63,451 nt of DNA from an uncultured Acholeplasmataceae bacterium (GCA_905203475.1 CAJKWD010000003.1:1-63451); one strand, 5' to 3'. Shown: positions 56,443 to 63,451, counted from the stretch's first letter. Notes: generated by a model not told the origin, from the letters alone. Program-made: numbers and translations.

Positions 56443-58338
56443 TTGCCTGTGGGCTTTTTCGATAATATAAGAAAGTTTAAACATCAGCTCGATCATGTAG
56501 AATCAACAGTATATTCCGGCAAGCAGTCTTTGCTTGAAGTGTATGAAATTAATGCAAAACTGGAAGCAGAAATAGAATTAAGAACAAGAGAGCTTGATAG
56601 AGCTAATAGACAGATGCTTACTCTTCAGCATATATGGGATATGATGAATTCTTCAAAGCCTCTATCCAGTGTATTAAATGCAATAGTTAATAGTCTTCAG
56701 GGGGAATTGGGGTATTTATACAGCTTTATTGTAAAAGAAAAAGCTGATAATAATGGTAAATATTTGCAGATTGTTGCATCTTCACGCGACGATTTAGATA
56801 TTAAGTTTTCTGAAAAGTTTAAGTGTAATGTTTCTGATTTTCGCATGAATTTTCCCGAAATTAATGAAATTAAAAATGCAGTAAAAAATAATCAAATATA
56901 TCAGTCTACAAATCTTTCAGAGCTGGTATGCGGCTTTATCCCGGAGCTTGATACAAATAAAGTTGAAGAATTTTTAAGAGAAGCTAAGATGAAATCATAT
57001 ATTTTAGTCCCTCTAATGTCAAAACAAACTCACTTTGGTTCGCTGCTTGTTTTTTCTTCAAGAGAAACTGTTAGTGGAAGTGAATTGAATTTCTTAAGTT
57101 TATTTGCAAAGCAGATTGAGCTTGCAATAACCATTGCAGATTTGTTTCAAGCTGTTAAAGAACAAGCCATTACTGATGGGATGACAGGACTTTATAATAG
57201 ACGATATTTTGAAGAATTTATAAAAAAAGAAGCTGTACGTGCAGACAGACAAGGGCAAAAATTTACAGTAATCGGGCTTGATTTAGACCATCTAAAACAG
57301 ATTAATGATGCATACGGGCATAATTATGGCGACATAGCAATAAAAGCTATAGCTGAAGTTCTTAAAAATAATGCAAGGTCAATTGATATTGCTGCAAGAA
57401 TGGGGGGAGAAGAATTTAACCTCCTGTTACCAGGGGTAGATTCTGCTGGCGGTTGTATTGCTGCTGAACGTATAAGAAAGGCTATAGAAGCGGTAGAATT
57501 AGAGAAAATCGGCAGAATAACGGCAAGCTTAGGTGTTGCAACTTACCTAGAGCATTCTGAAGACATAGAAGAACTGCTTGAAATTACTGATAGGGCAATG
57601 TATGAATCAAAGCGCAACGGCAGAAACCGTGTAACAATTGCAAGACCCGCATATGAAACATCCTGGCAGGAGATTGCAGTAAATACATTTATCGATATTT
57701 TATCAAAACATAGGATACCTGTAGATGATTCAACATCCAGACTTTTGACCAAAAAGCTTCAAGAGATGAATATCAATAATGAAAAGCTTTATCAAGTAGC
57801 AGATGCGCTTGTTGCAACATATAATCCAGAGCATATTGAAGGAGGCGTTAAACAAAAGGTTGATTTGGCTGCGCTTCTAGCAAAACGTTTTGATTTATCT
57901 AAAGATGCAATTGATAGGCTTAAAGTAGCAGTATTGCTTTATGATATAGGTAATACAATGCTGCCAAAAGAGATATTGAGAAAAAAAGAACCTTTAAATG
58001 ACGATGATAAAGCTTCTATAAAACAGCATCCATTAATAGCAGCTCGTGAAATTTTAAAGCCAATATCAAATGTAACAGATGTTCTACCGATTATAGAAAA
58101 ACATCATGAAAACTGGAATGGAACTGGCTATCCTGCAAAAATTTCAGGAGAGGCAATTCCTATTGAATCACAAATAATTTTAATAGTAGATTCTTATTTT
58201 GCCCTATTAGAGAAAAGACCATATAGAGAGGCTATGTCGAAAGAAGAGGCTCTTAATATTATTGAGCAGGAAATTAACCAGAAATGGAGTCAGAAGCTTG
58301 CGCAGGAGTTTATTGGCATTGTTAAGAATGAGGAATAG
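56443..58338 (+). CDS. GAF-GGDEF-HD-GYP multidomain c-di-GMP protein
   Basis: Coiled-coil and GAF-like N-terminus. GGDEF domain with RSID I-site, 5-residue linker and GGEEF. C-terminal HHENWNGTGYP. TTG start; the exact start is uncertain. Confidence 0.85.
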   Translation: MPVGFFDNIRKFKHQLDHVESTVYSGKQSLLEVYEINAKLEAEIELRTRELDRANRQMLTLQHIWDMMNSSKPLSSVLNAIVNSLQGELGYLYSFIVKEKADNNGKYLQIVASSRDDLDIKFSEKFKCNVSDFRMNFPEINEIKNAVKNNQIYQSTNLSELVCGFIPELDTNKVEEFLREAKMKSYILVPLMSKQTHFGSLLVFSSRETVSGSELNFLSLFAKQIELAITIADLFQAVKEQAITDGMTGLYNRRYFEEFIKKEAVRADRQGQKFTVIGLDLDHLKQINDAYGHNYGDIAIKAIAEVLKNNARSIDIAARMGGEEFNLLLPGVDSAGGCIAAERIRKAIEAVELEKIGRITASLGVATYLEHSEDIEELLEITDRAMYESKRNGRNRVTIARPAYETSWQEIAVNTFIDILSKHRIPVDDSTSRLLTKKLQEMNINNEKLYQVADALVATYNPEHIEGGVKQKVDLAALLAKRFDLSKDAIDRLKVAVLLYDIGNTMLPKEILRKKEPLNDDDKASIKQHPLIAAREILKPISNVTDVLPIIEKHHENWNGTGYPAKISGEAIPIESQIILIVDSYFALLEKRPYREAMSKEEALNIIEQEINQKWSQKLAQEFIGIVKNEE

Positions 58339-61762: not shown

Positions 61763-62586
61763 TGATTCTTGATGGAAAAGCTGTATCAAAAAAAATACTG
61801 GACAATCTTAAAGTAAAGGTGGGTAACTTATCCAAACAGCCTCATCTGGTGGTTATTCTTGTTGGAAATAATCCTGCCAGCCAAATTTATGTAAAAAATA
61901 AAAAACTTGCAGCAGAAAATATAGGGATAAAATCTACTATTATAGAATTAGATTCTCAGATAAAAGAAACAGAGCTCCTTAATAAGATAGAACAATTGAA
62001 TAATGATTCCGATGTTACCGGTATTTTAGTTCAACTTCCTTTACCTGTTCATATTGATAAAAATAAGATTGTTACGGCTATTTCACCTAAAAAAGATGTA
62101 GATGGATTTACTCCGGAGAATGTTGGCAGACTAGCGATAGGTCTTGAGCCATATTTTTATCCGGCAACGCCTCAAGGTATTATAATGCTGCTTGATGAGT
62201 ACAATATTCCTATTGAAGGTGCTGATACTGTAATTATTGGGCGTTCAAATATTGTAGGTAAACCTATGGCGCAAATGCTTTTAAGAAGAAATGCCACTGT
62301 AACTATATGCCATTCTTATACTAAGAACATTGAAAGCAAAATAAAAACCGCCGATATAATTATATCTGCGGTTGGTAAAAAGATTGTAAGATGTAAGATG
62401 GTTAATAATAATTCTGTAATTGTTGACGTTGGAATCTTTAGGGATTCGAACGGCAAATTAACCGGTGATGTAGATTTTGATTTTGTATCACCTTCAGTGA
62501 AATATATTTCACCTGTACCTGGAGGGGTAGGCCCAATGACCATAGCCTCTTTGATGTATAATGCCTCCAAAGTATATGACAGGTAA
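61759..62586 (+). CDS. folD: Bifunctional methylenetetrahydrofolate dehydrogenase/cyclohydrolase
   Basis: ILDGK..., ..VG.NPAS..YV..K, GILVQLPLP, VIGRS.IVGKP, PVPGGVGPMT. Confidence 0.93.
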   Translation: MMILDGKAVSKKILDNLKVKVGNLSKQPHLVVILVGNNPASQIYVKNKKLAAENIGIKSTIIELDSQIKETELLNKIEQLNNDSDVTGILVQLPLPVHIDKNKIVTAISPKKDVDGFTPENVGRLAIGLEPYFYPATPQGIIMLLDEYNIPIEGADTVIIGRSNIVGKPMAQMLLRRNATVTICHSYTKNIESKIKTADIIISAVGKKIVRCKMVNNNSVIVDVGIFRDSNGKLTGDVDFDFVSPSVKYISPVPGGVGPMTIASLMYNASKVYDR

Positions 62587-62595
62587 TGCTTATTA

Positions 62596-63027
62596 CTATG
62601 ATTGCAGTAAGCCGGTGTCTTGGGCTGCACTTGTAGTCGCAGTCTTTTGACCTTCTTTCTGTGCACGTAACTGTTCTAACATAGATTCGTACATAGTCTG
62701 CATTGTGTCATATTCAACATCCATTTCTGCGAGTTCTAAAGAGAGCTCTTCATTATATTGTTTAACCTTAGCATGTGCATAAGCATCGGCTATCATTTCA
62801 TTTTTGTTGCCTTCAGCGACCCTTACGCCACCAACATTTAATTCTTTTGTATTATCAATGGCAGAGTCAAAAGCACTTTCCCATTTTTCTTCGTACTTAA
62901 CTTGTTTTTCAAGTTTAGCGCTATTTGCTTCATACTTACCACTCCAGAAAATTTGTTGCTGAGTGTAGTAATTAATGTCTGCATTAGTATTTAATAATGT
63001 TCCTAATAAAGCTGCTGTGTTTGCCAT
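62596..63027 (-). CDS. Helical hypothetical protein, divergent from the flagellin gene
   Basis: 143-aa ORF with AAAGGTATAGAAAG upstream on the minus strand. Predicted all-alpha, Q/E/A-rich. Confidence 0.5.
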   Translation of the reverse strand: MANTAALLGTLLNTNADINYYTQQQIFWSGKYEANSAKLEKQVKYEEKWESAFDSAIDNTKELNVGGVRVAEGNKNEMIADAYAHAKVKQYNEELSLELAEMDVEYDTMQTMYESMLEQLRAQKEGQKTATTSAAQDTGLLQS

Positions 63028-63269
63028 CTTTCTATACCTTTTTTATCTTACATATATATTAAGTATTTCAAAAATATCTAATTTCACAAAGGTATTTATT
63101 TGTTACAAAACTTAACATAGAAAAATTGTTTTGCGAATTAATGTAAACTTTTGTATATCATACATTGTAGTGTTAATAAATGTGATATATAATGTAGATA
63201 TGATATGTAGTGTCGCTAAAGATAATAAAAAGTGGCTAAAACCCTCTTGTAGTGCTGGATTGAGCTGTA

Positions 63270-63281
63270 GGGGGGGGGGGG
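63270..63281 (+). repeat. Homopolymeric G12 tract
   Basis: Twelve consecutive G read directly, 46 nt upstream of the flagellin ATG in otherwise AT-rich DNA. Confidence 0.95.
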
Positions 63282-63326
63282 CAGTAATAAGGCTATAACT
63301 GGTATTTTAAATACAGGGGGTATATA

Positions 63327-63451
63327 ATGATTACCCTAACCAGTGATGTAGCAGATTTAATTTTACAGCGTACATTAGGCGAAAATAGCCTAGGTCTGAA
63401 TAACTCAATCAACCGTATGACAACAGGTTACAAAGTTAATCAGGCAAAGGA
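63327..63451 (+). CDS. Flagellin-like protein, N-terminal fragment (3'-truncated by window edge)
   Basis: L..S..RM.TGY.VN.AKD matches the conserved flagellin N-terminal helix (L..S.ERLSSG.RIN.A.DD). GGGGG RBS 8 nt upstream. Confidence 0.6.
   Translation, partial: MITLTSDVADLILQRTLGENSLGLNNSINRMTTGYKVNQAK

Follow-up and report, generated by a model that had tools for sequence, protein, structure and literature searches.

Homopolymer and dinucleotide tracts in promoter spacers switch surface antigens in Neisseria, Haemophilus, Campylobacter and Mycoplasma, and phase variation by simple-sequence repeats (SSRs) as a whole is known almost only from cultured pathogens, namely Neisseria, Haemophilus, Campylobacter, Helicobacter, Moraxella and Mycoplasma. 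We report here on a run of twelve guanines (G12) that lies just upstream of a giant flagellin gene in a stretch of 63,451 nucleotides (nt) from an uncultured bacterium (GCA_905203475.1, CAJKWD010000003.1:1-63451), the whole of which is called the window below. According to the genome records, its source is the "CAG:196" lineage of the human-gut Candidatus Gastranaerophilales. We propose, with a probability of about 0.6, that this tract belongs to a family of hypermutable contingency loci, in which slippage would alter the output of the adjacent flagellin independently for each paralog. The initial annotation of the window had suggested a phase-variation switch acting through one particular promoter spacer. 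The switch itself gains from our analysis, as the tract is genuine, differs in length and recurs at every paralog examined and in three further species, whereas the specific spacer found no support.

In Neisseria meningitidis, porA carries a poly-G tract and opc a poly-C tract in the promoter spacer. For porA, expression is set by the -35/-10 spacing (van der Ende 1995, as cited in PMC5084427, reference 24). What our locus shares with these two is that a gene for a surface antigen is closely preceded by a homopolymeric G/C run of about 10-13 nt, with a -35-like hexamer and one-base length differences between strains. It departs from them in that the paralogs as a whole have no consistent -35/-10 pair on either side of the tract, and also by its flagellin target and its uncultured host of cyanobacterial lineage. 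Another comparison concerns the vlp genes of Mycoplasma hyorhinis, clustered genes for small lipoproteins that each have a poly-A tract in their promoter and are switched ON and OFF independently and in combination. The present locus is likewise part of a multigene family of variable surface proteins with its own homopolymer tract at each paralog; unlike vlp, this family is dispersed over eight contexts, encodes flagellins of 1300 amino acids (aa) and uses poly-G. For SSRs acting from the transcribed leader, the hmw repeats are an example, and PMC12721329 offers a precedent.

The poly-G tract upstream of the open reading frame (ORF) of Moraxella catarrhalis uspA1 ranges from G6 to G12 between strains; from G10 to G12, the amount of mRNA differs about 20-fold, and a 1-nt change of the flank moves the optimum (PMC7302503). 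This is a single adhesin gene of a proteobacterial pathogen, for which an effect on the transcript has been demonstrated, whereas we infer the effect here. In Helicobacter pylori, the length of a promoter-proximal T tract shifts the axial alignment of the sabA promoter elements and gives a graded output (PMC4081817). Unlike this T/A tract, which lies beside the -35 element and works by an UP-like mechanism in vitro, the tract considered here consists of G and, relative to a -10 element of the CTATAA type, would overlap the -35 position or take its place. In Campylobacter jejuni, poly-G is the dominant contingency mechanism and motility is among its targets (maf genes, flgR/flgS; PMC8355987). 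Those tracts are mostly coding, act by frameshift and concern accessory or regulatory genes, whereas ours lie upstream of flagellin structural genes.

As for the proteins, giant flagellins of more than 1000 aa, with conserved N- and C-termini and an enormous centre, have been described in marine gamma-proteobacteria (Thomson et al. 2018, as cited in PMC7018530). Those studied here come from another lineage, contain GGxGxD-like repeats and occur as several paralogs per genome; no poly-G tract is known to have been reported for the marine ones. The same flagellin survey mentions only flagella and diverse flagellins for Melainabacteria (PMC7018530), and our literature search found no prior link of Gastranaerophilales or Melainabacteria to SSRs or phase variation. 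The kind of mechanism is well known; new are the lineage, the fact that several giant flagellin structural genes are the target, and the layout in dispersed paralogs.

The tract and its variation in length

Reading window positions 62400-63451, we found the G12 run on the sense strand, about 45 nt 5' of the flagellin ATG (Table 1). The coordinates initially given for TTGAGC, the tract, TAATAA and the ATG were all right, as was the spacer of 19 nt. With a G+C content of 31.5%, about 1e-4 runs of G12 or longer are expected in the window, where the next longest G/C runs are three G6 and one C7. The tract is far beyond chance, in agreement with the initial judgement that it was very unlikely to arise in this way.

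Besides a genuine tract, the initial annotation had allowed for an artefact, either a poly-G product of two-colour sequencing chemistry or a contig-end effect, and several observations point in this direction. The tract is situated 170 nt from the window end, three short contigs stop 21-26 nt past it, and the contig of UMGS1517 (L011, the GTDB representative of the species) ends at it, with G20 followed by 19 unrelated bases (L011 1-60). The latter is a local misassembly, which left a chimeric contig end in a reference metagenome-assembled genome. However, a pure G tract with near-invariant flanks is internal to about 25 independent assemblies, obtained in several studies and with several assemblers, and three of the contigs that hold it internally measure 2.18-2.26 Mb. 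It was present in 10/10 contigs carrying the 143-aa ORF that neighbours it in the window (L001-L010); 11 further independent contigs came from a gapped-pattern scan of metagenome contigs and three more from a later lookup. Moreover, eight distinct loci have the tract, as do three further species. As to the end of the window, it is explained by the fact that contigs commonly break inside the repetitive, multi-copy flagellin gene (L006-L010). The tract disturbs assembly but is not created by it: an artefact is already refuted by the independent assemblies, and we give it a negligible probability.

At promoters of the window type, we counted G10 twice, G11 sixteen times, G12 six times (window included) and G17 once, the last in a long-read-style contig (L002), with no interrupted tract. 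In the window and in all other copies, the homopolymer is always pure and ranges from G10 to G17, which is above the 8 nt or so from which G/C runs can slip. When the flanks are identical over 94+100 nt, the tract differs in length in three of the four such pairs. Well-covered contigs also disagree, those at about 40x and 56x showing G12 and those at about 10x and 29x showing G11, and in another species two samples that share an identical 1329-aa flagellin show G10 (L088) and G11 (L089). The length thus differs on constant flanks between close relatives, consensus errors being possible at low coverage, and is polymorphic between near-identical haplotypes.

Giant flagellin paralogs and their upstream module

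In 17 loci of the same species, every G/C run of at least 8 nt lies 46-78 nt before a flagellin ATG, versus no such run in 599 kb of loci from 53 other Gastranaerophilales species. Tracts are enriched at this surface antigen over the background. Three further species have a tract before a giant flagellin (L083, G12; L088 and L089, G10 and G11; L090, G12), and their giant flagellins are only 49-58% identical in protein. That a pure run of 10-12 G persists over such a distance would argue for selection on the run itself, since a neutral homopolymer would shrink or be interrupted. The tract is specifically associated with giant flagellin genes, and is kept across paralogs and species.

We also considered whether the tract could be tied to the divergent 143-aa gene. 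Its product is 58-100% identical across 54 Gastranaerophilales species, and about 90 nt upstream of it (63028-63120) are conserved as well. In the 53 other species, the homologs have no G/C run of at least 6 in the 420 nt upstream and no adjacent giant flagellin; L029 alone has a conventional flagellin near, about 3 kb off. The gene adjoins a flagellin only in the window species, and the interspecies homology around it ends at about 63115-63127. Since the homologs lack the tract and the homology stops before it, this candidate was ruled out, and the tract belongs to the flagellin rather than to its neighbour.

The initial assignment of the downstream gene to the flagellins was confirmed. The 41 codons contained in the window match Pfam Flagellin_N with an E-value of 2.8e-4, below the cut-off because the window truncates the gene, and complete copies carry both PF00669 (Flagellin_N) and PF00700 (Flagellin_C). 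The gene continues in L005 (5781-9701, minus strand) as a giant flagellin, and this copy is named 'flagellin' by NCBI. Its central region is rich in GGxGxD-like repeats, with faint HemolysinCabind and DUF3060 matches. Short-read contigs, the window included, very often end inside this gene. In L001 (5779-9702, minus strand), it is split into 857 + 416 aa by one in-frame TAA where other strains have TCA (VNA*SNES versus VNASSNES); no homopolymer is involved, and this stop is either a nonsense allele or an assembly error.

Paralogs were found by a homology search with the full flagellin, after which the loci were fetched; the counts per genome are minima. One genome, GCA_037067905.1, contains at least four paralogous giant flagellins of about 1300 aa, and eight chromosomal contexts were found overall. 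Seven of them are listed in Table 1. The eighth, seen in metagenome contigs, follows a radical S-adenosylmethionine (radical-SAM) gene (L066/L074, L071, L075, L076), and the context next to a tetratricopeptide repeat (TPR) gene is also found in L065, L067 and L070. Because the genes flanking the radical-SAM and TPR contexts lie on the large contigs of the same species, these extra contexts, of type 1 as defined below, belong to one species. In every paralog context examined, a pure G11-G12 run is located 46-78 nt before the ATG, with G on the sense strand.

Within a genome, the termini of the paralogs (first 150 and last 100 residues) are 87-99% identical, and 94-99% identical in the NCBI genome, versus 67-80% for their middles. 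On this basis, the paralogs look antigenically distinct yet compatible in export and assembly, which is the pattern expected for such subunits. Each of them is complete, with its own start codon and ribosome-binding site, and there are no silent cassettes. Five flagellin coding sequences contain no G/C runs of at least 6 and no A/T runs of at least 8, which rules out a frameshift switch inside the gene.

Table 1. Positions of the features in the window and location of the tract at the paralogous loci of large contigs (retrieved loci bear L numbers).
Feature	Sequence	Position or locus	Strand	Remark
143-aa ORF, divergent neighbour	window	62596-63027	-	no Pfam or NCBIfam match
Distal sigma-70-like candidate TTGTAG-17-TATAAT	window	63165-63193	+	best-scoring site in region
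Tract-proximal module	window	63259-63313	+	no substitutions in 22 same-species sequences, tract length apart
TTGAGC, -35-like hexamer	window	63260-63265	+	4 nt 5' of tract; invariant in 22 same-species sequences
G12 homopolymer	window	63270-63281	+	proposed hypermutable element; sole G/C run >7 in the 63-kb window
TAATAA, -10 candidate of the initial annotation	window	63285-63290	+	weak; AAATCC in type-2 L078-L080
CTATAA, candidate -10-like element	window	63293-63298	+	sole 3' motif common to all paralog types and most species
AGGGGG, Shine-Dalgarno sequence of flagellin gene	window	63315-63320	+	6 nt before ATG; kept in all type-1 copies
Giant flagellin gene, 5' end (ATG at 63327)	window	63327-63451	+	cut by window end; 1306-1319 aa in complete copies
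Tract, window-type locus	GCA_037067905.1 (2.25 Mb)	L005		G12
Tract, after metK	GCA_037067905.1	L077		G12
Tract, after O-methyltransferase	GCA_037067905.1	L078		G11
Tract, after divergent TPR gene	GCA_037067905.1	L085		G11
Tract, window-type locus	2.18-Mb contig	L002		G17
Tract, after RNase III	2.18-Mb contig	L079		G11
Tract, next to peptidase M16 gene	2.18-Mb contig	L080		G11
Tract, after dnaG-rpoD	2.26-Mb contig	L091		G11

The upstream regions fall into two types. Type 1 (the window and two other contexts) reads GGATTGAGCTGTA-Gn-CAGTAATAAGGCTATAAC...AGGGGG-N6-ATG, and type 2 (five contexts) reads TT(T/C)GACCCTTA-Gn-CAGAAATCCTATAAATAC...GGAGG-N7-ATG, although the flanks of L077 and L091 are variants of it. 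A scan of the viral_contigs set for the type-2 flank gave no match. Features in common are, for most paralog types, a TTGNCC-like hexamer situated 4 nt 5' of the tract, and further TA-Gn-YAG immediately around it and C(C/T)TATAA 2-11 nt 3' of it. At the position of the window TTGAGC, the hexamer is TTGACC in L078, TTGCCT in L088 and TTCAAC in L083, and the C[C/T]TATAA element takes the forms GGCTATAAC in the window, CCTATAAAT in L077-L080 and L091, CTCTATAAT in L083 and CCTCTAAT in L088. The 22 same-species sequences have 11 variable sites in the 42 nt of 63217-63258, none in 63259-63313 and one at 63314; position 63258, directly before the TTGAGC zone, shows four alleles. To judge from this distribution of substitutions, the module around the tract is constrained. 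Furthermore, L077 has G12 and a 6-nt flank, L078-L080 have G11 and a 7-nt flank, and the same CCTATAAAT follows. The spacing to CCTATAAAT thus appears compensated between these loci, which parallels the flank-shifted optimum of uspA1.

The upstream regions are also mosaic, as seen when L077 3887-3935 is compared with window 63234-63281 and L078 3880-3934. L077 joins a 5' flank resembling that of the window or of L083 (GGCTCAAACCCTCT...) to a type-2 3' flank, and the position of a 13-nt motif, ATTGAGCTG(G)TAG, differs between the types, being 5' of the tract in type 1 and, at 24 nt, 3' of the tract in type 2. One could assume from these mosaics and from the displaced motif that the tract is a hot spot for gene conversion among the flagellin paralogs, comparable to the G-quadruplex (G4) of Neisseria pilE, all the more as the paralogs agree at 87-99% over the promoter and about the first 150 codons, against 67-80% in the middles. 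However, a pilE-type element consists of four runs of at least three G with silent donor cassettes, whereas we observe a single run of 10-12 G. A canonical three-tetrad G4 cannot arise from a lone run of 11-12 G, all the paralogs are complete genes, and homogenised termini are expected for any flagellins that co-assemble. Such a hot spot is therefore very improbable.

Promoter candidates and possible routes of action

According to the initial annotation, the tract would be the spacer of a promoter formed by TTGAGC and TAATAA. Read as a sigma-70 promoter, G12 (19 nt) would mean OFF or low expression and G10-G11 (17-18 nt) would mean ON. The geometry is indeed as stated in the window, and the observed G10-G12 straddle 17-19 nt, the modal G11 corresponding to 18 nt. 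The TTGAGC half stands up to comparison: it is conserved in position, invariant, and placed at the 5' edge of the zone free of single-nucleotide polymorphisms, which starts at 63259. In L083, an analogous layout scores well: TTCAAC-17-TATAAT, which spans the tract, ranks first among the sigma-70-like sites, and its spacing is optimal with the observed G12. The TAATAA half, on the other hand, lacks the near-invariant final T of -10 elements and is replaced by AAATCC in type-2 paralogs that retain the tract. The pair scores about 2 bits even at G10, that is with the 17 nt which the loss of two G would give and which had been called optimal, and it is absent from the six best sigma-70-like sites of the region. 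More generally, a good -10 is found across the tract at 16-19 nt only in L083, and weakly in L090, the distance being 24 nt in the type-2 paralogs. We consequently regard this exact pair as unlikely.

The best score goes to the distal TTGTAG-17-TATAAT. The distal site comes out top in both type-1 contexts (TTGTAG or TTGCGA; 8.0 and 10.6 bits), and TTGAAA/TTGAAT-17-TATAAT equivalents with the same 17-nt spacing exist in the type-2 loci L078 and L079 and in L088. If this promoter is used, the tract would lie at about +70 within a leader of about 126 nt. It could then act after initiation, on elongation, mRNA stability, processing or translation, and might still be phase-variable. In line with this idea, the distal block AATGTGGCATAT...AAGGATAT, in which these sites lie, is conserved ahead of Gastranaerophilales flagellin genes, including some that have no tract (L029, L084). 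Two blocks, AATGTG(G)CATATATAAT and A(A/T)AGGATAT (window 63176-63216), recur in different species at 100-220 nt from the flagellin start, on its 5' side, whether a tract is present or not (equivalents in L077-L080, L083, L088, L090, L091, L029 and L084). In addition, poly-G is on the sense strand in 12/12 contexts examined, and PMC7302503 and PMC12721329 provide precedents. However, TATAAT-like strings are common in AT-rich DNA, and 63217-63258, which separates the distal block from the tract, varies more than any other part of the region. Leader RNA folds, with z-scores of -0.2, -0.2, -1.7, 0.05 and 0.23, are no more stable than shuffles, no conserved structure is predicted, and an Rfam search gave no match; a structured RNA leader or a known RNA family was rejected on these grounds. 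Altogether, an action in the leader is in our opinion a serious possibility that falls short of even odds. It may be added that A(A/T)AGGATAT resembles a CsrA-type ARGGA site, and that CsrA-like AAGGATAT motifs are present in the distal block.

Other sigma factors were considered as well. The best matches to the sigma-28 consensus TAAA-N15-GCCGATAA reach 8-9/12 positions in every upstream region, which is no better than shuffled sequence, and a canonical sigma-28 (FliA) class-3 promoter was rejected on this basis. C(C/T)TATAA is alike to CCGATAA at 6/7 positions, the TAAA partner not being present. No sigma-54 -24/-12 elements in register were seen on inspection of the sequence, made without statistics. 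In type 2, TTGAGC-17-TATACT, located 3' of the tract, obtains the top position weight matrix score; it was dropped because the start would fall inside or after the ribosome-binding site, and because it is unconserved in L091 (TTTAGA...TTTACC). For want of a ribosome-binding site, an upstream ORF running across the tract (63131-63298, starting with TTG) was judged spurious. Lastly, a small sigma factor of 214-223 aa (L085 7373-8017; L086 and L087 7346-8017) is encoded two genes upstream of one paralog and overlaps the start of gcvPB. Its best specific NCBIfam similarity is a weak one, to FliA/WhiG (48.7 bits versus a cut-off of 189.6); it is a candidate flagellar sigma factor of the lineage.

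We propose that the poly-G tracts work as contingency loci in the following manner. Slipped-strand mispairing in replication would frequently change the length of each tract, by at least one G, and each change would alter the amount of the adjacent flagellin, because the tract sits inside a conserved regulatory module just upstream of the gene. Two routes could be envisaged. The first one involves the spacing between the -35-like TTGNCC hexamer, or an upstream site, and the -10-like C(C/T)TATAA, and the second one an effect within the transcribed leader. We give roughly equal weight to a promoter geometry (as for porA and vlp, or with the tract as the -35 region of a CTATAA-type promoter) and to a leader effect of the uspA1 or hmw kind. 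Independent switching at four or more loci would yield a population mixed in flagellar antigen type, and perhaps in motility; mixed antigen types would follow from the fact that the paralogs share filament-forming termini and differ in exposed middles.

One could go further and imagine a combinatorial system, in which four to eight dispersed giant flagellins would each be gated by poly-G and cells would stochastically express different sets of them, by a route that is neither a -35/-10 spacer nor a canonical sigma-28 promoter. In that case, the tract might stand in for the -35 region of a CTATAA-type promoter; alternatively, it might act in the leader or from the non-template strand, which would explain why G is always on the sense strand. 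We advance this complete scheme tentatively and consider it rather doubtful.

Several observations weigh against contingency loci. No single promoter geometry fits all loci, as C(C/T)TATAA, counted from the 5' end of the tract, lies at 14, 17-20 or 22 nt in the different loci; spacers of the sigma-70 type would amount to 21-24 nt in type-2 paralogs, L088 and L090; and the best sigma-70-like site of the window is 77 nt upstream of the tract. Two giant-flagellin loci of other species (L081/L082; L084) have no tract. Some of the length differences could be homopolymer consensus errors, several contigs being covered at <=2x and G17 coming from a long-read-style contig. Finally, the narrow range of G10-G12 could reflect a structural or binding requirement instead of switching.

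This last point leads to the hypothesis of a fixed cis element (for instance a site to which a protein binds, DNA of unusual structure or a two-tetrad G-quadruplex), whose small length differences would be neutral or erroneous. The range is indeed narrow over paralogs and species in spite of differing flanks, and homopolymer lengths are prone to error at low coverage. Well-covered contigs nevertheless still differ (G12 at 40x and 56x, G11 at 29x and 10x), a run of ten or more G is, from what is generally known of slipped-strand mispairing, intrinsically unstable, and its uninterrupted retention implies selection for the run itself. A fixed element without switching is accordingly improbable in our view.

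Implications and additional observations

Flagellin is the ligand of TLR5 and a major target of gut IgA. The SSR signature so far associated with pathogens is now found in an uncultured and widespread lineage of gut commensals; the index of public assemblies has the 143-aa neighbour protein in 7823 blocks. Provided that expression is indeed switched by the tracts, this would explain how the lineage varies a dominant surface antigen in the gut. On a practical level, tract and flagellin loci break short-read assemblies, and the window itself ends inside the gene.

Public records of the lineage are also labelled Melainabacteria, Vampirovibrio or, wrongly, 'Acinetobacter sp.' (CAG:196, RUG672), and the latter misnomer persists in protein names (records behind L060 and L061). 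Elsewhere in the window, a GGDEF/HD-GYP gene (56443-58338) is intact, with 629-631 aa; its counterpart in L004 (14690-16578) is split into 329 + 246 aa, probably by a consensus error in this long-read-style contig.

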